Shown here in pieces: positions 23,460 through 57,571 of a stretch of DNA of 64,000 nucleotides. Source of the stretch: Escherichia coli (lineage in GTDB: Bacteria > Pseudomonadota > Gammaproteobacteria > Enterobacterales > Enterobacteriaceae); assembly GCF_022846255.1 (NCBI RefSeq), contig NZ_AP025682.1; one strand, given 5' to 3'. The position numbers were made by a program, and so were the translations under genes. Below the pieces are notes generated by a model. That model saw only the letters and a program-made list of their open reading frames with translations, ran no database searches and had not been told where the DNA came from. Every line of letters starts with the position of its first letter. The first letter of the stretch is position 1.

Positions 23460-23535
23460 TGAACAAGTCCCATGTCGGCAAGCATAAGCACACAGAATTT
23501 GAAGCCCGCTGCCAGAAAAATGCATTCAGTGGTTG

Positions 23536-23727: not shown

Positions 23728-23888
23728 ATCGCCTCCCGTTTATTATTTATCTCCTCAGCCAGCCGCTGGGCTTTCAGTGGATTTTGGATAACAGAAAGGC
23801 CGGGAAATACCCAGCCTCGCTTTGTAACGGAGTAGACGAAAGTGATCGCACCTACCCGGATATTATCGTGAGGATGCGTCATCGCCAT
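23700..23888 (-). CDS. lambda orf60a-like hypothetical protein
   Basis: 62 aa; overlaps exo stop as in lambda. Confidence 0.5.
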
Positions 23889-30168: not shown

Positions 30169-30235
30169 TGAAACAGATGAGTTGAGTTCAAACTGTAGTA
30201 CAATTCTCTCCAGTTTGAACAGGAAAGAATATGCT

Positions 30236-30568: not shown

Positions 30569-30626
30569 AAATAATTTCTTTTGAATCGAGTGAAATAGGT
30601 TAGCCCGCATAAGTGCGGGCTGCTTT

Positions 30627-37327: not shown

Positions 37328-37705
37328 GATATTAAGTGATTTATGGCCTCGCTTTTAGCGGGGCTTTTTCATATCTGAATCTCACCATGCATATCATCAC
37401 CTGACTGGAACGTCAGGAGAATTCGTTACCGGGATTCGATAAAGGTATTCAAGCCTGACACATTATGCGCTGTATCGTCGCCGTATTCCTGCATTAACCA
37501 TGACCGTAGCCCGACGGGAACTCCTTCTGCGTGAGTGTGCGGGAATAATCAAAAACGATGCACACCGGGTTTTTACCGCGTTTATGGTTCGCGGGGGTGT
37601 CCCTCATGCTCGCCAGTCCTGTGCGGGGGTGGAAGAAACAGGACGTGTATTCAGGTCTGTGCGACCGTGGCCGCACGCATTTCTTTTATTGCTTTGAGGT
37701 AGATA

Positions 37706-37914
37706 TGTCAGTAGCTGTTTTCGAGGCACTCAATGCACGTATTAACCAACTTGAAAGTAAGGTGAAGGAATACGAGCAGCGACAGGCTGAGGCAGATGAG
37801 AAGACTCAGAACGAACTTTTCCTGGAGTTTCTTGCCATCGTTCACGAACTGATGCCGTTAGTTAATCAGGCGCTGATGACAGGGCTGAAGGATGGAGATT
37901 TACACAGTAGGTAA
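37706..37914 (+). CDS. hypothetical small coiled-coil protein
   Basis: 69 aa from MSVAVFEALNARINQLESKVKEYEQRQ. Confidence 0.3.
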
Positions 37915-37963
37915 ACCTGATCTTCTGTCTTACGGGTCCTTTCCGGCGATCCGGCAGGCTACG

Positions 37964-37975
37964 GGGCGGAAGGCG
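37964..37975. other. cosN cohesive-end site (variant 12-mer GGGCGGAAGGCG)
   Basis: flanks ACG...CGCGGGTTTTCGCTATTTATGAAAATTTTCCGG match lambda cos as recalled; lambda 12-mer is GGGCGGCGACCT. Confidence 0.5.
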
Positions 37976-38152
37976 CGCGGGTTTTCGCTATTTATGAAAA
38001 TTTTCCGGTTTAAGGCGTTTCCGTTCTTCTTTGCCGTAACTTAATGTTTTTATTTAAAACACCCCCTGAAAAGAAAGGAAACGACAGGTGCTGAAAACGG
38101 GCTTTTTGGCCTCTGTCGTTTCCTTTCTCTGTTTTTGTCCGTGGAATGAACA

Positions 38153-38671
38153 ATGGAAGTCAACAAAAAGCAGCTGGCTGACATTTTCGGTGCGAGTATC
38201 CGTACCATTCAGAACTGGCAGGAACAGGGAATGCCCGTTCTGCGAGGCGGTGGCAAGGGTAATGAGGTGCTTTATGACTCTGCCGCCGTCATAAAATGGT
38301 ATGCCGAAAGGGATGCTGAAATTGAGAACGAAAAGCTGCGCCGGGAGGTTGAAGAACTGCGGCAGGCCAGCGAGACAGATCTCCAGCCAGGACTATTGAG
38401 TACGAACGCCATCGACTTACGCGTGCGCAGGCCGACGCACAGGAGCTGAAAAATGCCAGAGACTCCGCTGAAGTGGTGGAAACTGCATTCTGTACTTTCG
38501 TGCTGTCGCGGATCGCAGGTGAAATTGCCAGTATTCTCGACGGGATCCCCCTGTCGGTGCAGCGGCGTTTTCCGGAACTGGAAAACCGACATGTTGATTT
38601 CCTGAAACGGGATATCATCAAAGCCATGAACAAAGCAGCCGCGCTGGATGAACTGATACCGGGGTTGCTGA

Positions 38672-38697
<26 letters not shown>
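38153..38697 (+). pseudogene. Nu1: terminase small subunit Nu1 with a 1-nt frameshift
   Basis: ORFs 38153-38449 and 38473-38697 together match lambda Nu1; total 545 nt versus 546 expected; missing A near 38391. Confidence 0.75.
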
Positions 38698-42378
<3,681 letters not shown>

Positions 42379-42398
<20 letters not shown>

Positions 42399-43698
42399 TC
42401 TCCCGCATATTGCCAGCATGGCCTTTAATGAGCCGCTGATGCTTGAACCCGCCTATGCGCGGGTTTTCTTTTGTGCGCTTGCAGGCCAGCTTGGGATCAG
42501 CCGCCTGACGGATGCGGTGTCCGGCGACAGCCTGACTGCCCAGGAGGCACTCGCGACGCTGGCATTATCCGGTGATGATGGCGGGCCACGACAGGCCCGC
42601 AGTTATCAGGTCATGAACGGCATCGCCGTGCTGCCGGTGTCCGGCACGCTGGTCAGCCGGACGCGGGCGCTGCAGCCGTATTCGGGGATGACCGGTTACA
42701 ACGGCATTATCGCCCGTCTGCAACAGGCTGCCAGCGATCCGATGGTGGACGGCATTCTGCTCGATATGGACACACCGGGCGGGATGGTGGCGGGAGCATT
42801 TGACTGTGCTGACATCATCGCCCGTGTGCGAGACATAAAACCGGTATGGACGCTGGCCAACGACATGAACTGCAGTGCAGGTCAGCTGCTTGCCAGCGCC
42901 GCCTCCCGGCGTCTGGTCACGCAGACCGCCCGGACAGGCTCCATCGGCGTCATGATGGCTCACAGTAATTACGGTGCTGCGCTGGAGAAACAGGGTGTGG
43001 AAATCACGCTGATTTACAGCGGCAGCCATAAGGTGGATGGCAACCCCTACAGCCATCTACCGGATGATGTCCGGGAAACACTGTAGTCCCGGATGGATGC
43101 AACCCGCCGGATGTTTGCACAGAAGGTGTCGGCATATACCGGCCTGTCCGTGCAGGCTGTGCTGGATACCGAGGCTGCAGTGTACAGCGGTCAGGAGGCT
43201 ATTGATGCCGGACTGGCTGATGAACTTGTTAACAGTACCGATGCGATCACCGTCATGCGTGATGCACTGGATACACGTAAATCCCGTCTCTCAGGAGGGC
43301 GAATGACCAAAGAGACTCAATCAACAACTGTTTCAGCCACTGCTTCGCAGGCTGACGTTACTGGCGTGGTGCAAGCGACGGAGGGCGAGAACGCCAGCGC
43401 GGCGCAGCCGGACGTGAACGCGCAGATCACCGCAGCGGTTGCGGCAGAAAACAGCCGCATTATGGGTATCCTCAATTGTGAGGAGGCCCACGGACGTGAA
43501 GAACAGGCACGCGTGTTGGCAGAAACCCCCGGAATGACCGTGGAAACGGCCCGCCGCATTCTGGCCGCAGCACCACAGAGTGCACAGGCGCGCAGTGACA
43601 CTGCGCTGGATCGTCTGATGCAGGGGGCACCGGCACCGCTGGCTGCAGGTAACCCGGCATCTGATGCCGTTAACGATTTGCTGAACACACCAGTGTAA
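42379..43698 (+). pseudogene. C: head protease/scaffold gene C interrupted by an in-frame TAG at 43084-43086
   Basis: GTG start inside B; 440 codons in one frame equal lambda gpC length, but codon 236 is TAG; S49 peptidase domain lies upstream of the stop. Confidence 0.7.
43093..43698 (+). CDS. Nu3: scaffolding protein Nu3
   Basis: 201 aa, same frame as the C 3' part; starts MDATRRMFAQ. Confidence 0.9.
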   Translation: MDATRRMFAQKVSAYTGLSVQAVLDTEAAVYSGQEAIDAGLADELVNSTDAITVMRDALDTRKSRLSGGRMTKETQSTTVSATASQADVTGVVQATEGENASAAQPDVNAQITAAVAAENSRIMGILNCEEAHGREEQARVLAETPGMTVETARRILAAAPQSAQARSDTALDRLMQGAPAPLAAGNPASDAVNDLLNTPV

Positions 43699-43707
43699 GG
43701 GATGTTT

Positions 43708-44040
43708 ATGACGAGCAAAGAAACCTTTACCCATTACCAGCCGCTGGGCAACAGTGACCCGGCTCATACCGCAACCGCGCCCGGCGGATTGAGTGCGAAA
43801 GCGCCTGCAATGACCCCGCTGATGCTGGACACCTCCACCCGTAAGCTGGTTGCGTGGGATGGCACCACCGACGGTGCTGCCGTTGGCATTCTGGCGGTTG
43901 ATGCTGACCAGACCAGCACCACGCTGACGTTCTACAAGTCCGGCACGTTCCGTTATGAGGATGTGCTCTGGCCGGAGGCTGCCAGCGATGAGACGAAAAA
44001 ACGGACCGCGTTTGCCGGAACGGCAATCAGCATCGTTTAA
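43708..44040 (+). CDS. D: head decoration protein D
   Basis: 110 aa from [12 protein letters not shown], lambda gpD-like. Confidence 0.95.
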
Positions 44041-44061
44041 CCTTACCCTTCATCACTAAAG

Positions 44062-44082
44062 GCCGCCTGTGCGGCTTTTTTT
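44062..44082 (+). terminator. hairpin plus T-run between D and E
   Basis: GCCGCCTGTGCGGC followed by TTTTTTT. Confidence 0.5.
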
Positions 44083-44095
44083 ACGGGATTTTTTT

Positions 44096-45121
44096 ATGTC
44101 GATGTACACAACCGCCCAGCTGCTGGCGGCAAATGAGCAGAAATTTAAGTTTGATCCGCTGTTTCTGCGCCTCTTTTTCCGTGAGAGCTATCCCTTCACC
44201 ACGGAGAAAGTCTATCTCTCACAAATTCCGGGACTGGTAAACATGGCGCTGTACGTTTCGCCGATTGTTTCCGGTGAGGTTATCCGCTCCCGTGGCGGCT
44301 CCACCTCTGAATTTACGCCGGGATATGTCAAGCCGAAGCATGAAGTGAATCCGCAGATGACCCTGCGTCGCCTGCCGGATGAAGATCCGCAGAATCTGGC
44401 GGATCCGGCTTACCGTCGCCGTCGCATCATCATGCAGAACATGCGTGACGAAGAGCTGGCCATTGCCCAGGTCGAAGAGATGCAGGCAGTTTCTGCCGTG
44501 CTTAAGGGCAAATACACCATGACCGGTGAAGCCTTCGATCCGGTTGAGGTGGATATGGGCCGCAGTGCGGCGAATAACATCACGCAGTCCGGCGGCACGG
44601 AGTGGAGCAAGCGTGACAAGTCCACGTATGACCCGACCGACGATATCGAAGCCTACGCGCTGAACGCCAGCGGTGTGGTGAATATCATCGTGTTCGATCC
44701 GAAAGGCTGGGCGCTGTTCCGTTCCTTCAAAGCCGTCAGGGAGAAGCTGGATACCCGTCGCGGCTCTCATTCCGAGCTGGAGACAGCGGTAAAAGACCTG
44801 GGCAAAGCGGTGTCCTATAAGGGAATGTATGGCGATGTGGCCATCGTCGTGTATTCCGGACAGTACGTGGAAAACGGCGTCAAAAAGAACTTCCTGCCGG
44901 ACAACACGATGGTGCTGGGGAACACTCAGGCTCGCGGTCTGCGCACCTATGGCTGTATTCAGGATGCGGATGCATTGAGTGAGGGTATTAATGCGTCTCC
45001 TCGTTATCCGAAAAACTGGAAGACATCCGGCGATCCGGCGCGTGAGTTCACCATGATTCAGTCAGCACCGCTAATGCTGCTGGCTGATCCTGATGAGTTC
45101 GTGTCCGTACAACTGGCGTAA
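44096..45121 (+). CDS. E: major capsid protein E
   Basis: 341 aa from MSMYTTAQLLAANEQ, lambda gpE-like. Confidence 0.97.
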   Translation: MSMYTTAQLLAANEQKFKFDPLFLRLFFRESYPFTTEKVYLSQIPGLVNMALYVSPIVSGEVIRSRGGSTSEFTPGYVKPKHEVNPQMTLRRLPDEDPQNLADPAYRRRRIIMQNMRDEELAIAQVEEMQAVSAVLKGKYTMTGEAFDPVEVDMGRSAANNITQSGGTEWSKRDKSTYDPTDDIEAYALNASGVVNIIVFDPKGWALFRSFKAVREKLDTRRGSHSELETAVKDLGKAVSYKGMYGDVAIVVYSGQYVENGVKKNFLPDNTMVLGNTQARGLRTYGCIQDADALSEGINASPRYPKNWKTSGDPAREFTMIQSAPLMLLADPDEFVSVQLA

Positions 45122-45158
45122 TCATGGCCCTTCGGGGCCATTTCTCTCTGTGGAGGAG

Positions 45159-45557
45159 TCCATGACGAAAGATGAACTGATTGCCCGTCTCCGCTCGCTG
45201 GGTGAACAACTGAACCGTGATGTCAGCCTGACGGGGACGAAAGAAGAACTGGTGCTCCGTGTGGCAGAGCTGGAAGAGGAGCTTGATGACACGGATGACG
45301 CTGCCGGTCAGGACACATCTGTCAGCCCGGAAAATGCGCTGACCGGACATGAAAATGAGGTGGTATCAGCGCAGCCGGATACCGTGACTGATACGGCTGA
45401 TCTGGTCACGGTTGTGGCACTGGTGACGCTGCATACTGATGCACTTCACGCCACGCGGGATGAACCTGTGGCATTTGTGCTGCCGGGAACGGCGTTTCGT
45501 GTCTCTGCCGGTGTGGCAGCCGAAATGACAGAGCGCGGCCTGGCCAGAATGCAATAA
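45159..45557 (+). CDS. FI: DNA packaging protein FI
   Basis: 132 aa from MTKDELIARLRSLGEQ. Confidence 0.9.
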   Translation, partial: SMTKDELIARLRSLGEQLNRDVSLTGTKEELVLRVAELEEELDDTDDAAGQDTSVSPENALTGHENEVVSAQPDTVTDTADLVTVVALVTLHTDALHATRDEPVAFVLPGTAFRVSAGVAAEMTERGLARMQ

Positions 45558-45568
45558 CGGGAGGCGCT

Positions 45569-45922
45569 GTGGCTGATTTCGATAACCTGTTCGATGCTGC
45601 CATTGCCCGCGCCGATGAAACGATACGCGGGTACATGGGAACGTCAGCCACCATGACATCCGGTGAGCAGTCCGGTGCTGTGATACGTGGTGTTTTTGAT
45701 GACCCTGAAAATATCAGCTATGCCGGACAGGGCGTGCGCGTTGAAGGCTCCAGCCCGTCCCTGTTTGTCCGGACTGATGATGTGCGGCAGCTGCGGCGCG
45801 GCGACACGCTGACCATCGGTGAGGAAAACTTCTGGATAGACCGGATTTCGCCGGATGATGGCGGAAGCTGTCATCTCTGGCTTGGGCGGGGCGTACCGCC
45901 TGCCGTTAACCGTCGCCGCTGA
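45569..45922 (+). CDS. FII: head completion protein FII
   Basis: 117 aa, lambda gpFII-like. Confidence 0.9.
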   Translation: MADFDNLFDAAIARADETIRGYMGTSATMTSGEQSGAVIRGVFDDPENISYAGQGVRVEGSSPSLFVRTDDVRQLRRGDTLTIGEENFWIDRISPDDGGSCHLWLGRGVPPAVNRRR

Positions 45923-45933
45923 AAGGGGGATGT

Positions 45934-46512
45934 ATGGCCATAAAAGGTCTTGAGCAGGCCGTTGAAAACCTCAGCCGTATCAGCAGAACGGCGGTGCCCG
46001 GTGCCGCCGCAATGGCCATTAACCGCGTTGCTTCATCCGCGATATCGCAGTCGGCGTCACAGGTTGCCCGTGAGACAAAGGTACGCCGGAAACTGGTAAA
46101 GGAAAGGGCCAGGCTGAAAAGGGCCACGGTCAAAAATCCGCAGGCCAGAATCAGGGTTAACCGGGGGGATTTGCCCGTAATAAAGCTGGGTAACGCGCGG
46201 ATTGTCCTGTCCCGACGCAGGCGTCGTAAAAAGGGGCAGCGTTCATCCCTGAAAGGTGGCGGCAGCGTGCTTGTGGTGGGTAACCGTCGTATTCCCGGCG
46301 CGTTTATTCAGCAACTGAAAAATGGCCGGTGGCATGTCATGCAGCGTGTGGCCGGGAAAAACCGTTACCCCATTGATGTAGTGAAAATCCCGATGGCGGT
46401 GCCGCTGACCACGGCGTTTAAACAAAATATTGAGCGGATACGGCGTGAACGTCTTCCGAAAGAGCTGGGCTATGCGCTGCAGCATCAACTGAGGATGGTA
46501 ATAAAGCGATGA
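45934..46512 (+). CDS. Z: tail completion protein Z
   Basis: 192 aa, lambda gpZ-like. Confidence 0.9.
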   Translation: MAIKGLEQAVENLSRISRTAVPGAAAMAINRVASSAISQSASQVARETKVRRKLVKERARLKRATVKNPQARIRVNRGDLPVIKLGNARIVLSRRRRRKKGQRSSLKGGGSVLVVGNRRIPGAFIQQLKNGRWHVMQRVAGKNRYPIDVVKIPMAVPLTTAFKQNIERIRRERLPKELGYALQHQLRMVIKR

Positions 46513-46904
46513 AACATACTGAACTCCGTGCAGCCGTACTGGATGCACTGGAGAAGCATGACACCGGGGCGACGTTTTTTGATGGTCGCCCCGCTGTTTT
46601 TGATGAGGCGGATTTTCCGGCAGTTGCCGTTTATCTCACCGGCGCTGAATACACGGGCGAAGAGCTGGACAGCGATACCTGGCAGGCGGAGCTGCATATC
46701 GAAGTTTTCCTGCCTGCTCAGGTGCCGGATTCAGAGCTGGATTCGTGGATGGAGTCCCGGATTTACCCGGTGATGAGCGATATCCCGGCACTGTCAGATT
46801 TGATCACCAGTATGGTGGCCAGCGGCTATGACTACCGGCGCGACGATGATGCGGGCCTGTGGAGTTCAGCCGATCTGACTTATGTCATTACCTATGAAAT
46901 GTGA
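46509..46904 (+). CDS. U: tail terminator protein U
   Basis: 131 aa, lambda gpU-like. Confidence 0.9.
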
Positions 46905-46911
46905 GGACGCT

Positions 46912-47652
46912 ATGCCTGTACCAAATCCTACAATGCCGGTGAAAGGTGCCGGGACCACCCTGTGGGTTTATAAGGGGAGCGGTGACCCTTATGCGAACCC
47001 GCTTTCAGACGTTGACTGGTCGCGTCTGGCAAAAGTTAAAGACCTGACGCCCGGCGAACTGACCGCTGAGTCCTATGACGACAGCTATCTCGATGATGAA
47101 GATGCAGACTGGACTGCGACCGGGCAGGGGCAGAAATCTGCCGGAGATACCAGCTTCACGCTGGCGTGGATGCCCGGAGAGCAGGGGCAGCAGGCGCTGC
47201 TGGCGTGGTTTAATGAAGGTGATATCCGTGCCTATAAAATCCGCTTCCCGAACGGCACGGTCGATGTGTTCCGTGGCTGGGTCAGCAGTATCGGTAAGGC
47301 GGTGACGGCGAAGGAAGTGATTACCCGCACGGTGAAGGTCACCAATGTGGGACGTCCGTCGATGGCAGAAGATCGCAGCACGGTGACGGCGACAACCGGC
47401 ATGACGGTGACACCCGCCAGTGCTTCCGTAGTGAAAGGGCAGAGCACCACGCTGACCGTGGCATTCCAGCCGGAGGGCGCAACCGACAAGAGCTTCCGTG
47501 CGGTGTCTGCGGATAAAACAAAAGCCACCGTGTCGGTCAGTGGTATGACCATCACCGTGAAAGGTGTTGCTGCAGGCAAGGTCAACATTCCGGTCGTATC
47601 CGGTAATGGTGAACTTGCTGCGGTTGCAGAAATCAACGTCACCGCCAGTTAA
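46912..47652 (+). CDS. V: major tail tube protein V
   Basis: 246 aa from [16 protein letters not shown] with C-terminal Ig-like domain. Confidence 0.95.
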
Positions 47653-47667
47653 TCCGGAGAGTCAGCG

Positions 47668-48090
47668 ATGTTCCTGAAAACCGAATCATTTGAACATAAC
47701 GGTGTGACCGTCACGCTTTCTGAACTGTCAGCCCTGCAGCGTATTGAGCATCTCGCCCTGATGAAACGGCAGGCAGAACAGGCGGAGTCAGACAGCAACC
47801 GGAAGTTTACTGTGGAAGACGCCATCAGAACCGGCGCGTTTCTGGTGGCGATGTCCCTGTGGCATAACCATCCGAAGAAGACAAAGCTGCCTTCCATGAA
47901 TGAAGCCGTTAAACAGATTGAGCGGGAAGTGCTTACCACCTGGCCCACAGAGGCAATTTCTCATGCTGAAAACGTGGTGTACCGGCTGTCCGGTATGTAT
48001 GAGTTTGTGGTGAATGATGCTCCTGAACAGGCAGAGGACGCCGGGCCTGCAGAGCCTGTTTCTGCGGGAAAGTGTTCGACGGTGAGCTGA
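47668..48090 (+). CDS. G: tail assembly chaperone G
   Basis: 140 aa, lambda gpG-like. Confidence 0.9.
   Translation: MFLKTESFEHNGVTVTLSELSALQRIEHLALMKRQAEQAESDSNRKFTVEDAIRTGAFLVAMSLWHNHPKKTKLPSMNEAVKQIEREVLTTWPTEAISHAENVVYRLSGMYEFVVNDAPEQAEDAGPAEPVSAGKCSTVS
48066..48072 (+). promoter_or_regulatory. programmed -1 ribosomal frameshift slippery site GGGAAAG (G to GT fusion)
   Basis: heptamer near the 3' end of G; the downstream T frame has no ATG start. Confidence 0.7.
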
Positions 48091-48506
48091 GTTTTGCCCT
48101 GAAACTGGCGCGCGAGATGGGGCGACCCGACTGGCGTGCCATGCTTGCCGGGATGTCATCCACGGAGTATGCCGACTGGCACCGCTTTTACAGTACCCAT
48201 TATTTTCATGATGTTCTGCTGGATATGCACTTTTCCGGGCTGACGTACACCGTACTCAGCCTGTTTTTCAGCGATCCGGATATGCATCCGCTGGATTTCA
48301 GTCTGCTGAACCGGCGCGAGGCTGACGAAGAGCCTGAAGATGATGTGCTGATGCAGAAAGCGGCAGGGCTTGCCGGAGGTGTCCGCTTTGGCCCGGACGG
48401 GAATGAAGTTATCCCCGCTTCCCCGGATGTGGCGGACATGACGGAGGATGACGTAATGCTGATGACAGTATCAGAAGGGATCGCAGGAGGAGTCCGGTAT
48501 GGCTGA
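48072..48506 (+). CDS. T: tail assembly protein T (made only as G-T frameshift fusion)
   Basis: 144-codon frame continuing from the slippery site. Confidence 0.8.
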   Translation: MFDGELSFALKLAREMGRPDWRAMLAGMSSTEYADWHRFYSTHYFHDVLLDMHFSGLTYTVLSLFFSDPDMHPLDFSLLNRREADEEPEDDVLMQKAAGLAGGVRFGPDGNEVIPASPDVADMTEDDVMLMTVSEGIAGGVRYG

Positions 48507-51060
48507 ACCGGTAGGCGATCTGGTCGTTGATTTGAGTCTGGATGCGGCCAGATTTGACGAGCAGATGGCCAGAGTCAGGCGTCATTTTTCCGGTACGGAA
48601 AGTGATGCGAAAAAAACAGCGGCAGTCGTTGAACAGTCGCTGAGCCGACAGGCACTGGCTGCACAGAAAGCGGGGATTTCCGTCGGGCAGTATAAAGCTG
48701 CCATGCGTATGCTGCCTGCGCAGTTCACCGACGTGGCCACGCAGCTTGCAGGCGGGCAAAGTCCGTGGCTGATCCTGCTGCAACAGGGGGGGCAGGTGAA
48801 GGACTCCTTCGGCGGGATGATCCCCATGTTCAGGGGGCTTGCCGGTGCGATCACCCTGCCGATGGTCGGGGCCACCTCGCTGGCGGTGGCGACCGGTGCG
48901 CTGGCGTATGCCTGGTATCAGGGCAACTCAACCCTGTCCGATTTCAACAAAACGCTGGTCCTTTCCGGCAATCAGTCGGGTCTGACGGCAGATCGCATGC
49001 TGGTCCTGTCCAGAGCCGGGCAGGCGGCAGGGCTGACGTTTAACCAGACCAGCGAGTCACTCAGCGCACTGGTTAAGGCGGGAGTAAGCGGTGAGGCTCA
49101 GATTGCATCCATCAGCCAGAGTGTGGCGCGTTTCTCCTCTGCATCCGGCGTGGAGGTGGACAAGGTCGCTGAAGCCTTCGGGAAGCTGACCACAGACCCG
49201 ACGTCAGGGCTGACAGCGATGGCACGCCAGTTCCATAACGTGACGACGGAGCAGATTGCGTATGTTGCTCAGTTGCAGCGTTCCGGCGATGAAGCCGGGG
49301 CATTGCAGGCGGCGAACGAGGCCGCGACGAAAGGGTTTGATGACCAGACCCGCCGCCTGAAAGAGAACATGGGTACGCTGGAGACCTGGGCAGACAGGAC
49401 AGCGCGGGCATTCAAATCCATGTGGGATGCGGTGCTGGATATTGGTCGTCCTGATACCGCGCAGGAGATGCTGATTAAGGCAGAGGCTGCGTTTAAGAAA
49501 GCGGACGACATCTGGAGTCTGCGCAAGGATGATTATTTTGTTAACGATGAAGCGCGGGCGCGTTACTGGGATGATCGTGAAAAGGCCCGTCTTGCGCTTG
49601 AAGCCGCGAGAAAGAAGGCTGAGCAGCAGAGTCAACAGGACAAAAATGCGCAGCAGCAGAGCGATACTGAAGCGTCACGGCTGAAATATACCGAAGAGGC
49701 GCAGAAGGCTTACGAACGGCTGCAGACGCCGCTGGAGAAATATACCGCCCGTCAGGAAGAACTGAACAAGGCACTGAAGGACGGGAAAATTCTGCAGGCA
49801 GATTACAACACGCTGATGGCGGCGGCGAAAAAGGACTATGAAGCGACGCTGAAAAAGCCGAAACAGTCCGGCGTGAAGGTGTCTGCGGGCGATCGTCAGG
49901 AAGACAGTGCTCATGCTGCCCTGCTGACGCTTCAGGCTGAACTCCGGACGCTGGAGAAGCATGCCGGAGCAAATGAGAAAATCAGCCAGCAGCGCCGGGA
50001 TTTGTGGAAGGCGGAGAGTCAGTTCGCGGTACTGGAGGAGGCGGCGCAACGTCGCCAGCTGTCTGTACAGGAGAAATCCCTGCTGGCGCATAAAGATGAG
50101 ACGCTGGAGTACAAACGCCAGCTGGCTGCACTTGGCGACAAGGTTACGTATCAGGAGCGCCTGAACGCGCTGGCGCAGCAGGCGGATAAATTCGCACAGC
50201 AACAACGGGCAAAACGGGCAGCCATTGAGGCGAAAAACCGGGGGCTGACTGACCGGCAGGCAGCGCGGGACGCCACGGAACAGCGCCTGAAGGAACAGTA
50301 TGGCGATAATCCTCTGGCGCTGAATAACGTCATGTCAGAGCAGAAAAAGACCTGGGCGGCTGAAGACCTGCTTCGCGGGAACTGGATGGCAGGCCTCAGG
50401 TCCGGCTGGAGCGAGTGGAAAGAGAGTGCCACGGACAGTATGTCGCAGGTTAAAAGTGCTGCCACGCAGACCTTTGATGGTATTGCGCATAATATGGCGG
50501 CGATGCTGACCGGCAGTGAGCAGAACTGGCGAAGCTTCACCCGTTCCGTGCTGTCCATGATGACAGAAATTCTGCTTAAGCAGGCAATGGTGGGGATTGT
50601 CGGGAGTATCGGCAGCGCCATTGGCGGGGCTGTTGGTGGCGGCGCATCCGCGTCAGGCGGTACAGCCATTCAGGCCGCTGCGGCGAAATTCCATTTTGCA
50701 ACCGGAGGATTTACGGGAACCGGCGGCAAATATGAGCCAGCGGGGATTGTTCACCGTGGTGAGTTTGTCTTCACGAAGGAGGCAACCAGCCGGATTGGTG
50801 TCGGCAACCTGTACCGCCTAATGCGGGGCTATGCGGAAGGTGGTTATGTGGGCGGTGCCGGAAGTCCGGCGCAGATGCGGCGGGCTGAAGGCATTAATTT
50901 TAATCAGAACAATCACGTGGTGATTCAGAACGACGGTACGAATGGTCTGCCAGGTCCACAGATGATGAAGGCAGTGTATGACATGGCCCGCAAGGGTGCC
51001 CGTGATGAAATTCAGACACAGATGCGTGATGGTGGCCTGTTCTCCGGAGGTGGACGATGA
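48499..51060 (+). CDS. H: tail tape-measure protein H
   Basis: 853 aa, lambda gpH-like. Confidence 0.95.
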   Translation: MAEPVGDLVVDLSLDAARFDEQMARVRRHFSGTESDAKKTAAVVEQSLSRQALAAQKAGISVGQYKAAMRMLPAQFTDVATQLAGGQSPWLILLQQGGQVKDSFGGMIPMFRGLAGAITLPMVGATSLAVATGALAYAWYQGNSTLSDFNKTLVLSGNQSGLTADRMLVLSRAGQAAGLTFNQTSESLSALVKAGVSGEAQIASISQSVARFSSASGVEVDKVAEAFGKLTTDPTSGLTAMARQFHNVTTEQIAYVAQLQRSGDEAGALQAANEAATKGFDDQTRRLKENMGTLETWADRTARAFKSMWDAVLDIGRPDTAQEMLIKAEAAFKKADDIWSLRKDDYFVNDEARARYWDDREKARLALEAARKKAEQQSQQDKNAQQQSDTEASRLKYTEEAQKAYERLQTPLEKYTARQEELNKALKDGKILQADYNTLMAAAKKDYEATLKKPKQSGVKVSAGDRQEDSAHAALLTLQAELRTLEKHAGANEKISQQRRDLWKAESQFAVLEEAAQRRQLSVQEKSLLAHKDETLEYKRQLAALGDKVTYQERLNALAQQADKFAQQQRAKRAAIEAKNRGLTDRQAARDATEQRLKEQYGDNPLALNNVMSEQKKTWAAEDLLRGNWMAGLRSGWSEWKESATDSMSQVKSAATQTFDGIAHNMAAMLTGSEQNWRSFTRSVLSMMTEILLKQAMVGIVGSIGSAIGGAVGGGASASGGTAIQAAAAKFHFATGGFTGTGGKYEPAGIVHRGEFVFTKEATSRIGVGNLYRLMRGYAEGGYVGGAGSPAQMRRAEGINFNQNNHVVIQNDGTNGLPGPQMMKAVYDMARKGARDEIQTQMRDGGLFSGGGR

Positions 51061-51386
51061 AAACCTTCCGCTGGAAAGTGAAACCCGGTATGGATGTGGC
51101 TTCGGCCCCTTCTGTAAGAAAGGTGCGCTTTGGTGATGGCTATTCCCAGCGAGCGCCTGCCGGGCTGAATGCCAACCTGAAAACGTACAGCGTGACGCTT
51201 TCTGTCCCCCGTTGGGAGCCCACGGCGCTGGAGTCGTTTCTGGCTGAGCACGGGGGCTGGAAATCCTTTCTGTGGACGCCGCCTTATGAGTGGCGGCAGA
51301 TAAAGGTGACCTGCGCAAAATGGTCGTCGCGGGTCAGTATGCTGCGTGTTGAGTTCAGCGCAGAGTTTGAACAGGTGGTGAACTGA
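51057..51386 (+). CDS. M: tail tip protein M
   Basis: 109 aa, lambda gpM-like. Confidence 0.9.
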   Translation: MKTFRWKVKPGMDVASAPSVRKVRFGDGYSQRAPAGLNANLKTYSVTLSVPRWEPTALESFLAEHGGWKSFLWTPPYEWRQIKVTCAKWSSRVSMLRVEFSAEFEQVVN

Positions 51387-52084
51387 TGCAGGATATCCGG
51401 CAGGAAACATTGAATGAATGCACCCGTGCGGAGCAGTCGGCCAGCGTGGTGCTCTGGGAAATCGATCTGACAGAGGTCGGTGGAGAACGTTATTTTTTCT
51501 GTAATGAGCAGAACGAAAAAGGTGAGCCGGTCACCTGGCAGGGGCGACAGTATCAGCCGTATCCCATTCAGGGGAGTAGTTTTGAACTGAATGGCAAAGG
51601 CACCAGTACGCGCCCCACGCTGACGGTTTCTAACCTGTACGGTATGGTCACCGGGATGGTGGAAGATCTGCAGAGTCTGGTCGGCGGAACGGTGGTCAGG
51701 CGTAAGGTTTACGCCCGTTTTCTGGATGCGGTGAACTTCGTCAACGGAAACAGCGACGCCGATCCGGAGCAGGAGGTGATCAGCCGCTGGCGCATCGAGC
51801 AGTGCAGCGAACTGAGTGCGGTCAGTGCCTCCTTTGTACTGTCCACACCGACGGAAACGGATGGTGCCGTTTTTCCGGGGCGCATCATGCTGGCCAACAC
51901 CTGCACCTGGACCTATCGCGGCGATGAGTGCGGTTATCACGGTCCGGCGGTCGCGGATGAATATGACCAGCCAACGTCCGATATCACGAAGGATAAATGC
52001 AGCAAATGCCTGAGCGGTTGTAAGTTCCGCAATAACGTCGGCAACTTTGGCGGCTTCCTTTCCATTAACAAACTTTCGCAGTAA
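51386..52084 (+). CDS. L: tail tip protein L
   Basis: 232 aa with Cys cluster. Confidence 0.9.
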   Translation: MQDIRQETLNECTRAEQSASVVLWEIDLTEVGGERYFFCNEQNEKGEPVTWQGRQYQPYPIQGSSFELNGKGTSTRPTLTVSNLYGMVTGMVEDLQSLVGGTVVRRKVYARFLDAVNFVNGNSDADPEQEVISRWRIEQCSELSAVSASFVLSTPTETDGAVFPGRIMLANTCTWTYRGDECGYHGPAVADEYDQPTSDITKDKCSKCLSGCKFRNNVGNFGGFLSINKLSQ

Positions 52085-52089
52085 ATCCC

Positions 52090-52833
52090 ATGACACAGGC
52101 AGAATCAGCGATTCTGGCGCACGCCCGGCGATGTGCGCCAGCGGAGTCGTGCGGCTTCGTGGTAAGCACGCCGGAGGGGGAAAGATATTTCCCCTGCGTG
52201 AATATCTCCGGTGAGCCGGAGGCGTATTTCCGTATGTCGCCGGAAGACTGGCTGCAGGCAGAAATGCAGGGTGAGATTGTGGCGCTGGTCCACAGCCACC
52301 CCGGTGGTCTGCCCTGGCTGAGTGAGGCCGACCGGCGGCTGCAGGTGCAGAGTGATTTGCCGTGGTTGCTGGTCTGCCGGGGGGCGATTCATAAGTTCCG
52401 CTGTGTGCCGCATCTCACCGGGCGGCGCTTTGAGCACGGGGTGACGGACTGTTACACGCTGTTCCGGGATGCTTATCATCTGGCGGGGATTGAGATGCCG
52501 GATTTTCATCGTGAGGATGACTGGTGGCGTCACGGTCAGAATCTCTATCTGGATAATCTGGAGGCAACGGGGCTGTATCAGGTGCCGTTGTCAGCGGCGC
52601 AGCCGGGCGATGTGCTGCTGTGCTGTTTTGGTTCATCGGTGCCGAATCATGCCGCTATTTACTGCGGCGACGGCGAGCTGCTGCACCATATTCCTGAACA
52701 ACTGAGCAAACGAGAGAGGTATACCGACAAATGGCAGCGACGCACACACTCCCTCTGGCGTCACCGGGCATGGCGCGCATCTGCCTTTACGGGGATTTAC
52801 AACGATTTGGCCGCCGCATCGACCTTCGTGTGA
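52090..52833 (+). CDS. K: tail tip assembly protein K (JAB/MPN plus NlpC/P60-like)
   Basis: 247-aa ORF with HSHP motif; overlaps I as in lambda. Confidence 0.85.
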   Translation: MTQAESAILAHARRCAPAESCGFVVSTPEGERYFPCVNISGEPEAYFRMSPEDWLQAEMQGEIVALVHSHPGGLPWLSEADRRLQVQSDLPWLLVCRGAIHKFRCVPHLTGRRFEHGVTDCYTLFRDAYHLAGIEMPDFHREDDWWRHGQNLYLDNLEATGLYQVPLSAAQPGDVLLCCFGSSVPNHAAIYCGDGELLHHIPEQLSKRERYTDKWQRRTHSLWRHRAWRASAFTGIYNDLAAASTFV

Positions 52834-53402
52834 AAACGGGGGCTGAAGCCATTCGGGCGCTGGCCACACAGCTCCCGGCGTTTCGTCAGAAACTGAGCGA
52901 CGGCTGGTATCAGGTACGGATTTCCGGGCGGGACGTCAGCACGTCCGGATTGACGGCGCAGTTACATGAGGTTCTGCCTGACGGCGCTGTGATTCATATT
53001 GTTCCCAGAGTCGCCGGGGCCAAGTCAGGGGGCGTATTCCAGATTGTTCTGGGGGCTGCCGCCATTGCCGGATCATTCTTTACTGCCGGAGCCACCCTTG
53101 CAGCATGGGGGGCAGCCATTGGGGCCGGTGGTATGACCGGTATCCTGTTTTCTCTCGGTGCCAGTATGGTACTTGGTGGTGTGGCGCAGATGCTGGCACC
53201 GAAAGCCAGGACGCCCACGGCAGCCAGTACAGATAACGGCAAACAGAACACGTATTTCTCGTCACTGGATAACATGGTTGCCCAGGGCAATGTTCTGCCT
53301 GTTCTGTACGGGGAAATGCGCGTGGGGTCACGCGTGGTTTCTCAGGAGATCAGCACGGCAGACGAAGGGGACGGTGGTCAGGTTGTGGTGATTGGTCGCT
53401 GA
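52731..53402 (+). CDS. I: tail tip assembly protein I
   Basis: 223 aa, lambda gpI-like. Confidence 0.85.
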   Translation: MAATHTLPLASPGMARICLYGDLQRFGRRIDLRVKTGAEAIRALATQLPAFRQKLSDGWYQVRISGRDVSTSGLTAQLHEVLPDGAVIHIVPRVAGAKSGGVFQIVLGAAAIAGSFFTAGATLAAWGAAIGAGGMTGILFSLGASMVLGGVAQMLAPKARTPTAASTDNGKQNTYFSSLDNMVAQGNVLPVLYGEMRVGSRVVSQEISTADEGDGGQVVVIGR

Positions 53403-53462
53403 TGCAAAATGTTTTATGTGAAACCGCCTCCGGGCGGTTTTGTCGTTTATGGAGCATGACGA

Positions 53463-56400
53463 ATGGGTAAAGGCAGCAGTAAGGGGCATACCCCGCGCGA
53501 AGCGAAGGACAACCTGAAATCCACGCAGTTGCTGAGTGTGATTGATGCCATCAGTGAAGGGCCGGTTGAAGGTCCGGTGGATGGATTAAAAAGCGTGCTG
53601 CTGAACAGTACGCCGGTGCTGGACAGTGAGGGGAATACCAACATCTCCGGTGTCACGGTGGTGTTCCGGGCAGGTGAGCAGGAGCAGACACCGCCGGAGG
53701 GATTTGAATCCTCCGGTTCCGAGACGGTGCTGGGTACGGAAGTGAAATACGACACGCCGATCACCCGCACCATCACGTCGGCAAACATCGACCGTCTGCG
53801 CTTTACCTTCGGTGTGCAGGCACTGGTGGAAACCACCTCAAAGGGGGACAGGAATCCATCGGAAGTCCGCCTGCTGGTTCAGATACAACGTAACGGTGGC
53901 TGGGTGACGGAAAAAGACATCACCATTAAGGGCAAAACCACCTCGCAGTATCTGGCCTCGGTGGTGGTGGATAACCTGCCGCCGCGCCCGTTTAATATCC
54001 GGATGCGCAGGATGACGCCGGACAGCACCACAGACCAGCTGCAGAACAAAACGCTCTGGTCGTCATACACCGAAATCATCGATGTGAAACAGTGCTACCC
54101 GAACACGGCACTGGTCGGCGTGCAGGTGGATTCGGAGCAGTTCGGCAGCCAGCAGGTGAGCCGTAATTATCATCTGCGCGGGCGTATTCTGCAGGTGCCG
54201 TCGAACTATAACCCGCAGACGCGGCAATACAGCGGTATCTGGGACGGAACGTTTAAGCCAGCATACAGCAACAACATGGCCTGGTGTCTGTGGGATATGC
54301 TGACCCACCCGCGCTACGGCATGGGGAAACGTCTTGGTGCGGCAGATGTGGATAAATGGGCGCTGTATGTCATCGGCCAGTATTGCGACCAGTCAGTGCC
54401 GGACGGTTTTGGCGGCACGGAGCCGCGCATCACCTGTAATGCGTACCTGACCACACAGCGCAAGGCGTGGGATGTGCTCAGTGATTTCTGCTCGGCGATG
54501 CGCTGTATGCCGGTATGGAACGGGCAGACGCTGACGTTCGTGCAGGACCGACCGTCGGATAAGGTGTGGACCTATAACCGCAGTAATGTGGTGATGCCGG
54601 ATGATGGCGCGCCGTTCCGCTACAGCTTCAGCGCCCTGAAAGACCGCCATAATGCCGTTGAGGTGAACTGGATTGACCCGAACAACGGCTGGGAGACGGC
54701 GACAGAGCTTGTGGAGGACACGCAGGCCATTGCCCGTTACGGTCGTAACGTCACGAAGATGGATGCTTTTGGCTGTACCAGCCGGGGGCAGGCACACCGC
54801 GCCGGGCTGTGGCTGATTAAAACAGAACTGCTGGAAACGCAGACCGTGGACTTCAGCGTGGGCGCAGAAGGGCTTCGCCATGTGCCGGGCGATGTCATTG
54901 AAATCTGTGATGATGACTATGCCGGTATCAGCACCGGCGGGCGCGTGCTGGCGGTAAACAGCCAGACCCGGACGCTGACGCTCGACCGTGAAATCACGCT
55001 GCCATCCTCCGGCACCACGCTGATAAGCCTGGTTGACGGGCAGGGGAGTCCGGTCAGCGTGGAGGTCCAGTCCGTCACCGACGGTGTGAAGGTGAAAGTG
55101 AGCCGGGTTCCTGACGGAATAGCCGAATACAGCGTGTGGGGGCTGAAGCTGCCGACGCTGCGTCAGCGCCTGTTCCGCTGTGTGAGTATCCGTGAGAATG
55201 ATGACGGCACGTATGCCATCACCGCCGTGCAGCATGTACCGGAAAAAGAAGCCATCGTGGATAACGGGGCACACTTTGACGGCGACCGGAGCGGCACGGT
55301 GAATGGTGTCACGCCGCCAGCGGTGCAGCACCTGACCGCCGAAGTCATTGCAGACAGCGGGGAGTATCAGGTACTGGCCCGCTGGGACACGCCGAAGGTG
55401 GTGAAGGGCGTGAGCTTCCTGCTTCGCCTGACCGTGACAGCGGATGACGGCAGTGAGCGGCTGGTCAGCACGGCCCGGACGACGGAAACCACATACCGCT
55501 TCACACAACTGGCACCGGGGAACTACAGGCTGACAGTCCGGGCAGTAAATGCCCGGGGGCAGCAGGGAGACCCGGCGTCTGTATCGTTCCGGATTGCCGC
55601 ACCGGCAGCACCGTCGCGGATTGAGCTGACGCCGGGTTATTTTCAGATAACCGCCACGCCACATCTTGCGGTTTATGACCCGACGGTACAGTTTGAGTTC
55701 TGGTTTTCGGAAAAGCGGATTGCCGATATCCGGCAGGTTGAAACCACAGCGCGCTATCTTGGCACGGCGCTGTACTGGATAGCCGCCAGTATCAATATCA
55801 GGCCGGGCTATGATTATTATTTTTACGTTCGCAGTGTGAACACCGTTGGCAAATCTGCATTCGTGGAGGCTGTCGGTCAGGCGAGCGATGATGCGGAAGG
55901 TTACCTGGATTTTTTCAAAGGCAAGATAACCGAATCCCATCTCGGCAAGGAGCTGCTGGAAAAAGTCGAACTGACGGAGGGTAACGCCAGCAAACTGGAG
56001 GAGTTTTCGAAAGAGTGGAAGGACGCCATTGATAAATGGAATGCCATGTGGGGCGTCAAAATTGAGCAGACCAGAGACGGCAAACATTATGTCACGGGTA
56101 TTGGTCTCAGCATGGAGGACACGGTGAGCCAGTTTCTGGTTGCCGCTAACCGTATCGCGTTTATTGATCCGGCAAACGGGAATGAAACGCCGATGTTTGT
56201 GGCGCAGGGCAATCAGATATTCATGAACGACGTGTTCCTGAAACGCCTGACGGCCCCCACCATTACCAGTGGTGGAAATCCACCGGCATTTTCCCTGACA
56301 CCGGACGGAAAGCTGACTGCTAAAAATGCGGATATCAGTGGCAGTGTGAATGCGAACGCCGGGACGCTCAACAACGTCACGATAAATGAGAACTGTACGA

Positions 56401-56846
56401 TTAAAGGGAAACTGTCAGCCAATCAGATTGAAGGCGATATTGTCAAAACAGTGGGTAAGGCTTTCCCGCGGGATTCCCGTGCACCGGAGCAGTGGCCATC
56501 AGGGACCATTACCGTCAGAGTCTATGACGATCAGCCTTTTGACCGGCAAATTGTTATTCCCGCGGTGGCGTTTCGCGGAGCTAAACATGAGCGGGAGAAT
56601 AGCGATACTTATTCGTCATGCCGCCTGATAGTGAAGAAAAACGGTGCTGAAATTTATAACCGTACCGCACAGGATAGTACGCTGATTTATACAGGTGTTA
56701 TTGATATGCCTGCAGGCAGTGGCGTAATGACACTGGAGTTTTCTGTATCAGCATGGTGGGTAAATGGTTGGTATCCCACAGCAAGTATCAGCGATTTGCT
56801 GGTTGTGGTGATGAAGAAATCCACTGCAGGTATCACGATTAGCTGA
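53463..56846 (+). CDS. J: central tail fibre / host-specificity protein J
   Basis: 1127 aa; first ~960 aa lambda gpJ-like, last ~160 aa divergent. Confidence 0.95.
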
Positions 56847-56864
56847 ATTTTATAACCCATATAC

Positions 56865-56890
56865 GGGCGCCAGAAATGGCGCCTTTTTTA
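56865..56890 (+). terminator. rho-independent terminator after J
   Basis: GGGCGCCAGAAATGGCGCC followed by TTTTTT. Confidence 0.6.
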
Positions 56891-56913
56891 TTGCAGAAAA
56901 GCGAGAGGTAATT

Positions 56914-57513
56914 ATGCGTAAAGTTTGTGCCGCCATTTTGTCCGCCGCCATCTGTCTGGTCGTATCCGGTGCGCCTGCATGGGCATCTGAGCAGCAGGCC
57001 ACGCTGAGCGCGGGGTATCTTCATGCCCGGACGACCGCTCCCGGTAGCGATAATCTGAACGGGATTAACGTGAAATACCGTTATGAATTTACGGACACGC
57101 TGGGGCTGATTACGTCCTTCAGTTATGCCGACGCCGAAGATGAACATAAAACGCATTACAGCGATACCCGCTGGCATGAAGATTCCGTGCGTAACCGCTG
57201 GTTCAGCGTAATGGCGGGGCCGTCTGTGCGTGTGAATGAATGGTTCAGTGCGTATGCGATGGGGGGTGTGGCTTACAGCCGTGTGTCGACTTTTTCCGGG
57301 GATTATCTCCGCGTAACTGACAACACGGGGAAAACGCACGATGTGCTGACCGGAAGTGATGACGGTCGCCACAGCAACACGTCTCTGGCGTGGGGGGCTG
57401 GCGTGCAGTTTAACCCGACCGAATCCGTGGCCATTGATATTGCTTATGAAGGCTCCGGCAGTGGTGACTGGCGCACTGACGGTTTCATCGTGGGTGTCGG
57501 TTATAAATTCTGA
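56914..57513 (+). CDS. lom: outer-membrane protein Lom (Ail/OmpX family)
   Basis: 199 aa with signal peptide and C-terminal YKF. Confidence 0.9.
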   Translation: MRKVCAAILSAAICLVVSGAPAWASEQQATLSAGYLHARTTAPGSDNLNGINVKYRYEFTDTLGLITSFSYADAEDEHKTHYSDTRWHEDSVRNRWFSVMAGPSVRVNEWFSAYAMGGVAYSRVSTFSGDYLRVTDNTGKTHDVLTGSDDGRHSNTSLAWGAGVQFNPTESVAIDIAYEGSGSGDWRTDGFIVGVGYKF

Positions 57514-57540
57514 TTAGCCAGGTAACACAGTGTTATGACA

Positions 57541-57567
57541 GCCCGCCGGTTCAGGCGGGCTTTTTTG
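57541..57567 (+). terminator. rho-independent terminator after lom
   Basis: GCCCGCCGGTTCAGGCGGGC followed by TTTTTT. Confidence 0.6.
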
Positions 57568-57571
57568 TGGG

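Follow-up and report, generated by a model that had tools for sequence, protein, structure and literature searches.

We estimate the probability at about 85% that gene C of the lambda-like prophage described here carries a loss-of-function nonsense mutation that belongs to ordinary early prophage decay and involves no new coding trick. The gene is located in a stretch of 64,000 nucleotides from Escherichia coli (contig NZ_AP025682.1 of assembly GCF_022846255.1) that was analysed as a whole and is referred to as the window. The lesion is inherited, has arisen in a single step, falls within the fold of the encoded protease and is rare in this species.

The product of gene C in phage lambda, gpC, is reportedly a viral protease. 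In the window the C frame comprises 440 codons in one reading frame that starts with GTG behind a GGAGGAG motif (Table 1), and the read-through protein exhibits 97.7% identity with lambda gpC over residues 1-439. The overlap of B with C and the subsequent order of D and E are those of lambda, as are the GTG start, the length of 439 amino acids and the in-frame nesting of a 201-residue Nu3, which corresponds to the nested protease/scaffold pair C/Nu3 at lambda coordinates 4418-5737 and 5132-5737. At position 236, where lambda gpC has glutamine (CAG) in the context LQSRMDATRQ, the window copy shows TAG, and this triplet at 43084-43086 is the sole internal stop of the frame. The first-pass annotation had already described one 440-codon frame with TAG at codon 236 in place of the CAG of lambda; both the reading of the frame and the alignment with lambda bear this out, and the diagnosis of a nonsense mutation in a lambda-type gene C is supported.

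Table 1. Positions of gene C, the nested scaffold gene and the accompanying late genes in the window
Feature	Position	Strand	Description
Gene C frame	42379..43698	+	Orthologue of lambda gpC, head maturation protease fused to scaffold domain; pseudogene via one internal amber
S166 codon	42874..42876	+	Predicted nucleophile; aligned to the nucleophilic Ser of B. subtilis SppA; invariant in 54 relatives
K218 codon	43030..43032	+	Predicted general base; aligned to an Ala in the SppA crystal constructs 3RST and 4KWB; invariant in 54 relatives
Amber TAG	43084..43086	+	Codon 236; C>T transition from CAG (Gln)
Truncated product C(1-235)	42379..43086	+	GTG start, GGAGGAG ribosome-binding site, ends at TAG
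Nu3 scaffold ORF	43093..43698	+	201 codons, uninterrupted; 97% identical to lambda Nu3; product recorded as BDH32616.1
nu1 (terminase small subunit)	38153..38698	+	1-base deletion at ~38392; split into 98- and 74-aa ORFs
Rest of lambda-type late module	38672..60990	+	A, W, B, D, E, FI, FII, Z, U, V, G, T, H, M, L, K, I, J, lom, stf, tfa

The start of Nu3 is an in-frame internal ATG at gpC codon 239, which begins 6 nucleotides downstream of the stop. Only the codons 237 (Ser) and 238 (Arg) precede this ATG at 43093, so that the earlier wording "two codons before" the Nu3 start is accurate, and Nu3 was rightly regarded as intact because its ORF runs uninterrupted to 43698. The frame still codes for the scaffold domain, yet gpC can no longer include it, which means that in the window, unlike in lambda, no product contains both the protease and the scaffold part. 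The deposited records list the C and Nu3 pieces as two hypothetical proteins.

The nonsense codon is accompanied by the frameshift in nu1, and both are found together in GCA_005387665.1 and in the Logan assembly of DRR102846. The two were assembled independently, represent a sister strain and match the window at 100% over 37615-43199 (5.6 kb). Since both of them carry the TAG as well as the nu1 deletion, the lesions are inherited and not an assembly artefact. It could be argued that the T at 43084 was introduced by sequencing or assembly and that the gene is really intact, as the change is a single-base substitution and an allele intact at 43084 exists. Such an error is almost inconceivable, however, because the exact 235-residue truncated product is recorded under two accessions (BDH32615.1 and GDA26582.1) and the two lesions reappear, within the 5.6 kb of complete identity, in a draft genome and in an assembly from raw reads. 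The window-type truncated product (P0002) is restricted to 2 contigs. The sister strain shows an additional 23-bp deletion in T, and a breakpoint of recombination that separates it from the window lies no more than 115 bp from the TAG.

An intact twin of the window allele is still circulating. The protein P0182, known from three isolates (GenBank EFF0700350.1, EPL8246691.1 and EKV8157638.1), is the window allele with Q236, and the corresponding loci (L099-L101) differ from the window over 42306-43199 (894 bp) by one base, namely C at 43084. As the intact twin is identical across these 894 bp except for this base, the TAG arose by a single C>T transition from an intact allele. In the contig that carries one of the twin alleles (L100) nu1 is intact. 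The substitutions A158T and D68G were considered as decay that followed the stop in the window lineage and were rejected as such, since both are present in the intact twin and must predate the stop.

The identical change of codon 236 from CAG to TAG was found in three further loci, GUJ28_RS01760 and GUJ28_RS06815 of strain 94EC and QMY05_RS17385 of strain AHS8C65RI, which RefSeq labels as pseudogenes ("S49 family peptidase, internal stop"). Their haplotype differs from the window at 34 of 1320 nucleotides and shares with it, around the mutated site, only the tract from nt 619 to 725 of the gene. Prophages of the 94EC type reside at the Qin and argU sites, in contrast with the window prophage on the dsdC side. 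They have their own CAG twin (L039), which is identical over nt 1-894. The TAG is the only private change of the 94EC-type allele. Because the haplotypes differ, share only nt 619-725 and possess each a CAG twin that matches over a longer distance, the TAG at codon 236 appears from these alignments to have arisen independently in the window and 94EC lineages. A common origin of both TAG alleles by gene conversion was rejected as main explanation, as the CAG twins match over 894 bp each; a conversion patch of less than 107 bp may nevertheless link them. The truncated product of the 94EC type (P0001) occurs on 56 contigs with head and tail genes otherwise intact. In strain 94EC itself two prophages share an identical tract of 17,764 bp which carries the TAG allele, and thus the TAG has been copied between two prophages of one genome inside this tract. 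The Qin-site prophage of 94EC contains another internal-stop pseudogene as well.

In complete E. coli genomes the CAG form is present at 2236 places and the TAG form at 3 (about 0.1% of alleles). When every possible single-base nonsense 31-mer of C was pooled in one search, whose sensitivity is limited by the need for exact 28-base seeds, nonsense alleles were detected at 7 codons (71, 205, 236, 259, 265, 324 and 376) in 10 of 5426 genomes. Three of these sites were hit in two genomes each, and mutations at four sites destroy Nu3 as well. A special status of codon 236 was considered and rejected because six other sites were found and this one is not an outlier. With 6 of the 29 transition-type nonsense sites already hit, a second hit would coincide with one of them by chance in about 1 of 5 cases, if equal rates are assumed for all sites. 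Not a single nonsense allele of C was found among 50,697 records of isolated phages. In IMG/VR the 31-mer with TAG was detected in 0 contigs compared with 81 for the CAG form, a difference that is uninformative at an allele frequency of about 0.1-2%. Judged from these records, C nonsense alleles appear to be subject to purifying selection where phages must be viable, and the alleles detected fit a background of neutral decay.

It follows from the stop, as was correctly anticipated, that full-length gpC is possible only with suppression. An amber suppressor or natural read-through of UAG could insert glutamine and restore wild-type gpC, and even a low level might suffice, since only about ten copies of gpC are needed per procapsid. 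In lambda assembly gpC is a minor component relative to Nu3, and as the original codon was CAG, a near-cognate tRNA-Gln that reads UAG would bring back the native residue. We consider this very improbable. Within the 64-kb window no tRNA gene was found, and the stop is not conserved in related functional genes, as would be typical of recoding; both TAG lineages have CAG twins, and the TAG form accounts for only about 0.1% of alleles and is absent from isolated phages. Moreover, gene C was first identified through amber (sus) mutants unable to grow on hosts that lack a suppressor, so background read-through is normally insufficient, and a U directly after the stop, as present here, probably represents an efficient termination context. 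The accompanying frameshift in nu1 could not be rescued by suppression in any case.

The place of the stop within the protease was derived from the read-through sequence. Pfam Peptidase_S49 (PF01343) covers residues 150-297 (E = 6e-43), gpC residues 81-298 align to the catalytic domain of SppA (3RST, E = 1e-21), and the AlphaFold model of gpC (mean pLDDT 82) exhibits a confident globular fold to about residue 305, with a disordered linker that precedes the C-terminal helical scaffold domain (residues 346-415 helical, pLDDT 96-97). This means that the S49 fold extends over approximately residues 80-305 and is bisected by the stop, the domain ending after about 70% of its length. The first-pass annotation had placed the S49 region upstream of the stop, which does not hold: only the catalytic dyad S166/K218 lies there. 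In the model one continuous helix (residues 229-254) contains both the stop and the start of Nu3, and the first ~60 residues of Nu3 are the C-terminal part of the S49 fold according to Pfam, the SppA alignment and the AlphaFold model alike.

With SppA (MEROPS S49; PDB 3RST, 4KWB and 3BF0) gpC shares the Ser and Lys positions of the dyad; the constructs 3RST and 4KWB are presumably K199A mutants. In contrast to SppA, gpC is soluble, acts as a protease in phage assembly and possesses, in addition, a disordered linker and a C-terminal helical scaffold domain. The truncated product retains both predicted catalytic residues. It is devoid of most of helix 229-254, of the last ~70 residues of the fold (including the ~50 that remain beyond this helix), of the linker and of the C-terminal targeting domain. 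Among the conserved positions downstream of the stop F246 is invariant in 54 relatives, and V250, T264, E265, A266, A274 and G278 are at least 90% conserved in the same set. By descent the window C is a gpC-type member of the S49 family, yet it is a pseudogene, its frame being interrupted at codon 236 and not open through the catalytic fold to about residue 300.

The distribution of the fold over two reading frames raises the question whether a two-piece protease could be formed, in which C(1-235) would dock non-covalently on the N-terminal ~60 residues of Nu3, complete the S49 fold and act tethered to the scaffold. The truncated product and Nu3 together encode all of gpC except Q236, S237 and R238, the former contributing the dyad and the latter the conserved rest of the fold, and the fact that codon 236 was hit independently in two lineages, one of them represented by 56 contigs whose head and tail genes are otherwise intact, could hint at tolerance. 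If true, this would show that the nested C/Nu3 architecture divides one fold between two products; it would also account for the second hit on this codon and for the presence of one lineage on dozens of contigs with intact head genes. We regard it as highly doubtful, since the break occurs inside a continuous, confidently predicted helix and neither in a loop nor at a domain boundary. Among the best 150 of 31,898 homologues none of the divergent ones is split or ends near residue 236; they are nearly all fusions of 410-470 amino acids, and short protease-only forms end at about 293-301. A natural split of C at this place in related functional phages, which the first-pass annotation had named as a refuting observation, was thus found neither in the phage records nor among these homologues. 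The recurrence is statistically unremarkable, the allele is absent from isolated phages and from the IMG/VR contigs, and its spread is accounted for by recombination from prophage to prophage. In addition, the window lineage carries a lethal nu1 frameshift and the Qin-site prophage of 94EC its other internal-stop pseudogene.

The second lesion of the window prophage is equally real, as had been stated before: comparison with lambda reveals a 1-base deletion in nu1 (CCAGG-ACT in the window versus CCAGGAACT in lambda). All other genes of the late module are full length, and every lambda protein can be aligned over its entire length in a single frame, so that ~23 kb of late genes contain two small lesions only. 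Such intactness of the remaining structural genes is also the expected look of a still-functional phage. According to CRISPRi mapping both C and nu1 are essential in lambda (PMC10695390). If a defective prophage is understood as one with a lesion in at least one particle-essential gene, the C amber and the nu1 deletion place the window prophage in this category. That it has been disabled recently, as proposed in the first-pass annotation, is supported by the intact and circulating twin of C, the full length of the other head and tail genes and the additional break in nu1.

The prophage adjoins dsdC in the E. coli chromosome, and its right end lies beyond the window. Between dsdC (which ends at 19072) and exo (23879) no integrase-sized ORF is present; int and xis occupy this place in lambda, whereas genes for a PACE pump and a LysR protein are found here. 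The cargo comprises this PACE transporter with its AceR-like LysR regulator, EmrE, an esterase lipoprotein and an OmpC-family porin. The first-pass annotation had offered, as an alternative, a prophage retained for cargo and tail functions, and from these genes and the intact tail genes one could suppose that the host has selected the lesions in order to lock in a prophage with useful cargo (efflux pumps, porin, esterase) or tails. This seems improbable, as no signal of selection is visible: the lesion is rare, the lineages are recent and the nonsense sites are scattered as in neutral decay, and the intact tails can just as well mean that decay has had too little time.

A more conceivable objection to simple decay is that this copy of C no longer works, while other lambdoid prophages of the same cell provide gpC and Nu1 in trans or mend the lesions by recombination, and that the element is still packaged and transferred. 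In O157 Sakai, lambdoid prophages with head and packaging defects, one of them with nu1 disrupted, are still packaged, which the authors credit to complementation by other prophages (PMC2669165). Genomes of E. coli contain up to 7 copies of gene C with 97-98% identity, and the breakpoint close to the TAG as well as the long shared tract in 94EC demonstrate that recombination of modules is active. On the other hand, the lack of an integrase-sized ORF at the left junction may block excision regardless of any complementation, and in 94EC recombination has so far spread the TAG and not repaired it. Altogether we consider rescue by neighbouring prophages possible but rather unlikely.

Under the preferred reading, in which C is a pseudogene and its prophage was grounded recently, translation would begin at the GTG and end after 235 residues, Nu3 would still be made from its own start, and the prophage would produce the scaffold and no competent protease. 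The small terminase subunit would also be lost through the independent nu1 deletion. As neither a competent protease nor this subunit would be made, the prophage is expected to be unable to yield infectious particles alone, despite its otherwise intact head and tail genes. The inactivity of the truncated gpC and the phenotype after induction are inferred. In lambda, the C-terminal domain shared by gpC and Nu3 probably brings the protease into the assembling procapsid. In lambda an amber in C upstream of the Nu3 start would abolish gpC and spare the synthesis of Nu3. The classical conditional-lethal C amber (sus) mutants are a counterpart in this respect; in contrast with them, the window allele is natural, belongs to a prophage of wild E. 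coli, is inherited in at least two strains and is not a laboratory mutant grown on a suppressor host. Further counterparts are the defective lambdoid prophages of the O157 Sakai pool (PMC2669165) and Qin and DLP12 of K-12, which show point lesions in head and packaging genes of otherwise complete morphogenesis modules and, like the window prophage, recombination with sibling prophages. Unlike the Sakai prophages, for which IS insertions and deletions are emphasised, the window prophage has suffered a base substitution and is at a very early stage of decay.

For annotation this means that the prophage should be described as defective and C as a pseudogene, whereas Nu3 should be listed as intact. 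The window offers a clean and datable snapshot of the first steps of prophage decay, with two point lesions and an intact twin of each still in circulation. It is also evident that a conversion tract of 17.8 kb can carry a dead allele from one lambdoid prophage to another in the same genome. Therefore, prophages that share a lesion are not necessarily related by descent, and the recurrence of a lesion on different haplotypes is not necessarily a sign of selection.

Gene C of the prophage, encoding the head maturation protease gpC, forms a single reading frame of 440 codons (42379-43698) that begins with GTG behind a GGAGGAG motif; as in lambda, there is an overlap with the end of the portal gene. 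Its sole internal stop is TAG at 43084-43086 (codon 236), where lambda gpC has glutamine (CAG); elsewhere the protein is 97.7% identical to its lambda counterpart over residues 1-439. The nested Nu3 scaffold frame opens with ATG at 43093, separated from the stop by the codons of Ser237 and Arg238, and is intact over 201 codons, so that the first-pass annotation described both frames accurately. The 6-nt distance between the stop and the downstream Nu3 ATG could allow reinitiation by terminating ribosomes, and minimal polarity on D and E is expected under Q-antiterminated late transcription. A loss-of-function nonsense mutation in C is the best-supported reading (probability roughly 85%): the 235-residue fragment lacks part of the fold as well as the domain common to Nu3, and Nu3 itself is still produced.

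A one-off assembly error as source of the TAG was rejected because both this codon and the split nu1 gene recur in two other assemblies, namely the draft genome GCA_005387665.1 and the independent Logan assembly of run DRR102846. These are 100% identical to the window over 37615-43199 and then 1-2% divergent over 43200-49623; therefore both lesions predate a recombination that separates at least two strains. The divergent stretch is a recombinational replacement with its left breakpoint within 115 bp of the TAG, and in the DRR102846 assembly it spans the 3' part of Nu3, D, E, FI, FII, Z, U, V, G, T and the start of H. A similar breakpoint between nucleotides 706 and 726 of C is seen if the compared loci L007 and L001 are aligned. 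The exact 235-residue product is recorded as BDH32615.1 (E. coli TRECRb50), adjoined by BDH32616.1 which is the Nu3 of the window, and as GDA26582.1. The window sequence itself was absent from the complete-genome and phage collections searched, the best match of gene C being 98.6%. The sister strain (loci L014 and L015) is devoid of 23 bp inside gene T (window 48138-48160), and T is called there with 123 instead of 144 amino acids; this third lesion of that prophage lineage is absent from the window.

With Gln236 restored, the C allele of the window equals an intact 439-residue protein found in three GenBank isolates (EFF0700350.1, EPL8246691.1 and EKV8157638.1). Contigs with the corresponding DNA (L099-L101) differ from the window over 42306-43199 only by C versus T at 43084, and therefore the amber codon arose by a single C>T transition in an allele of which intact copies are still in circulation. 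A158T and D68G were considered as changes private to the window lineage and rejected, as both predate the stop.

The frequency of this lesion was assessed with a 31-mer centred on the mutated T, so each 28-base megablast seed includes this base. It occurred at three places in 2 of 5426 complete genomes, those of strains 94EC and AHS8C65RI (the CAG version at 2236 places in 1567 genomes), and in both the gene carries the annotation "S49 family peptidase, pseudogene, internal stop". Their allele differs from that of the window at 34 of 1320 positions, with only nucleotides 619-725 common around the stop, and the TAG is its only private change; an intact twin of this allele (L039) matches it throughout nucleotides 1-894 except at position 706. 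As the haplotypes are distinct and each has an intact twin, the two TAG alleles are best explained as independent mutations of one CAG codon. A pooled search in which each of the 99 single-base changes that create a stop in C was represented by 31-mers centred on the mutation in three haplotype contexts, and whose sensitivity was limited by the need for exact 28-base seeds, revealed 11 places in 10 genomes and at seven codons (71, 205, 236, 259, 265, 324 and 376). C>T transitions at CAG or CGA account for six of these codons; three of the seven were seen in two genomes each, and four also destroy Nu3. With 29 transition-type nonsense sites in C, six of them already mutated, a coincidental repeat has a chance of about 1 in 5 if equal site rates are assumed, and codon 236 is not an outlier among these sites. 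Lambda-type C is highly variable (75 full-length alleles from the IMG/VR loci L017-L096 and other loci fall into 53 haplotypes, typically with 30-40 differences per 1320 nt) and almost never disrupted, a nonsense codon being detectable in about 0.2% of some 4900 copies in complete genomes.

The truncated product of the 94EC type is found on 56 contigs, all with intact nu1, head and tail genes, in varied upstream contexts and with mosaic downstream genes. In AHS8C65RI the TAG copy sits in a prophage at the argU/DLP12 site, and 94EC has copies in prophages at the argU/DLP12 and Qin sites, the latter differing in its early region and containing a further pseudogene with an internal stop. Over 17,764 bp the two 94EC prophages are 100% identical, and this tract, which contains the TAG, begins shortly before nu1 and ends within J. 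The tract is a recent duplication or gene conversion of the whole late module within this genome, and therefore a dead allele can spread by homologous exchange between co-resident lambdoid prophages. The presence of the TAG in several prophage backbones does not imply a viable virion.

Peptidase_S49 (Pfam) covers gpC residues 150-297, and residues 81-298 align with SppA from B. subtilis (3RST, 4KWB; E = 1e-21), with S166 at the position of the nucleophile and K218 at that of the general base. Both are invariant among 54 relatives (34-75% identity), as is F246 downstream of the stop, where conservation reaches at least 90% at V250, T264, E265, A266, A274 and G278. An AlphaFold model based on the alignment of these relatives (mean pLDDT 82, core 95-98) predicts one continuous helix 229-254, within which both the stop and the Nu3 start fall, fold elements up to about residue 305, a disordered linker (306-345) and a confident helical C-terminal domain (346-415). 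The S49 region had been placed upstream of the stop in the first-pass annotation, which is wrong, since only the catalytic dyad is located there and the fold runs to about residue 305. Judged from the model, the protease product lacks about 70 fold residues and the scaffold-type C-terminal domain. As the fold continues past the Nu3 start, the first 60 or so residues of Nu3 represent a fragment of the protease fold.

A natural division of C at codon 236 in related functional phages, named at first pass as an observation that would speak against a lesion, was found neither in phage genomes nor among the listed homologues. The 50,697 deposited phage genomes, of which about 90 have the gene, include no C allele with a single-base nonsense change, and the TAG 31-mer is absent from IMG/VR versus 81 contigs with the CAG version, a comparison of low power. 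Of the divergent homologues among the best 150 of 31,898 from a representative library, almost all are fusions of 410-470 amino acids, the few short protease-only forms reach query residues 293-301, i.e. the true end of the fold, and none ends near residue 236. No positive support was obtained for amber suppression or read-through, for a two-piece protease that is functional, for selected domestication or for sequencing error, and several of these rivals are contradicted by the findings described here.

The prophage starts just past dsdC, and the flanking genes evgS, evgA, emrK and emrY show 99.8% identity with E. coli chromosomes. Its early region is lambdoid (exo, bet, gam, kil, a CI-like repressor, cro, a CII-like gene, O, P, ren, ninB, rusA and Q), holin, lysozyme and Rz follow after Q, and the remaining lambda head and tail genes from A to tfa are end-to-end single-frame matches. 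The nu1 frameshift reported at first pass is real and lies in a short GGA/GGG context (CCAGG-ACT in the window versus CCAGGAACT in lambda and CCAGGGACT in 94EC). It is common to L014 and L015, and nu1 is intact in L100, the only twin-allele contig that spans the whole gene. No integrase-sized ORF, and no excisionase ORF, is present at the left junction (19073-23878), the place of int/xis in lambda, and no tRNA gene within the 64-kb window. The side tail fibre gene (57572-60406) is one continuous ORF of 944 codons, whereas lambda NC_001416 is annotated with two, orf-401 (88% identical to the N-terminal 285 residues) and orf-314 (72% identical to the C-terminal part). The only Rfam match in the window, IS009 (RF02111, 229.5 bits, full length; 60749-60947, plus strand), lies inside tfa (60406-60990). 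Downstream, an ORF of 479 amino acids (62434-63873, plus strand) has no NCBIfam or PHROGs match, and its neighbour of 222 amino acids (61045-61713, minus strand) matches only phrog_2132 of unknown function.

Lesion, cargo and junction features of the window and the tract shared by two 94EC prophages
Feature	Coordinates	Strand or identifier	Remarks
nu1	38153-38698		1-base deletion near 38392, ORFs of 98 and 74 aa
Phage protein, function unknown	19585-19929	phrog_1229	left junction interval
PACE efflux transporter	20267-20725	minus strand	left junction interval
AceR-like LysR regulator	20829-21713		left junction interval, pairs with PACE pump as cargo
EmrE (SMR efflux pump) and alpha/beta-hydrolase esterase lipoprotein	30182-31670		between ren and ninB, cargo
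OmpC-family porin	34077-35234		between Q and holin, cargo
94EC shared tract	L016 28916-46679 and L103	NZ_CP047576.1	~334-352 kb and ~1402-1420 kb

Both genes, C and nu1, are essential for lambda (PMC10695390), so the prophage is expected to yield no infectious particles by itself. It is plausible that sibling prophages supply these functions in trans or repair the lesions; in O157 Sakai, lambdoid prophages with head or packaging defects still become packaged (PMC2669165). The window prophage adds one more case to the familiar lambdoid prophages in early decay, and RefSeq already marks the gene with this lesion as a pseudogene in another lineage. Of modest interest are the two independent mutations of codon 236, for both of which an intact twin survives, and the copying of a lesion-bearing late module over 17.8 kb within one genome.
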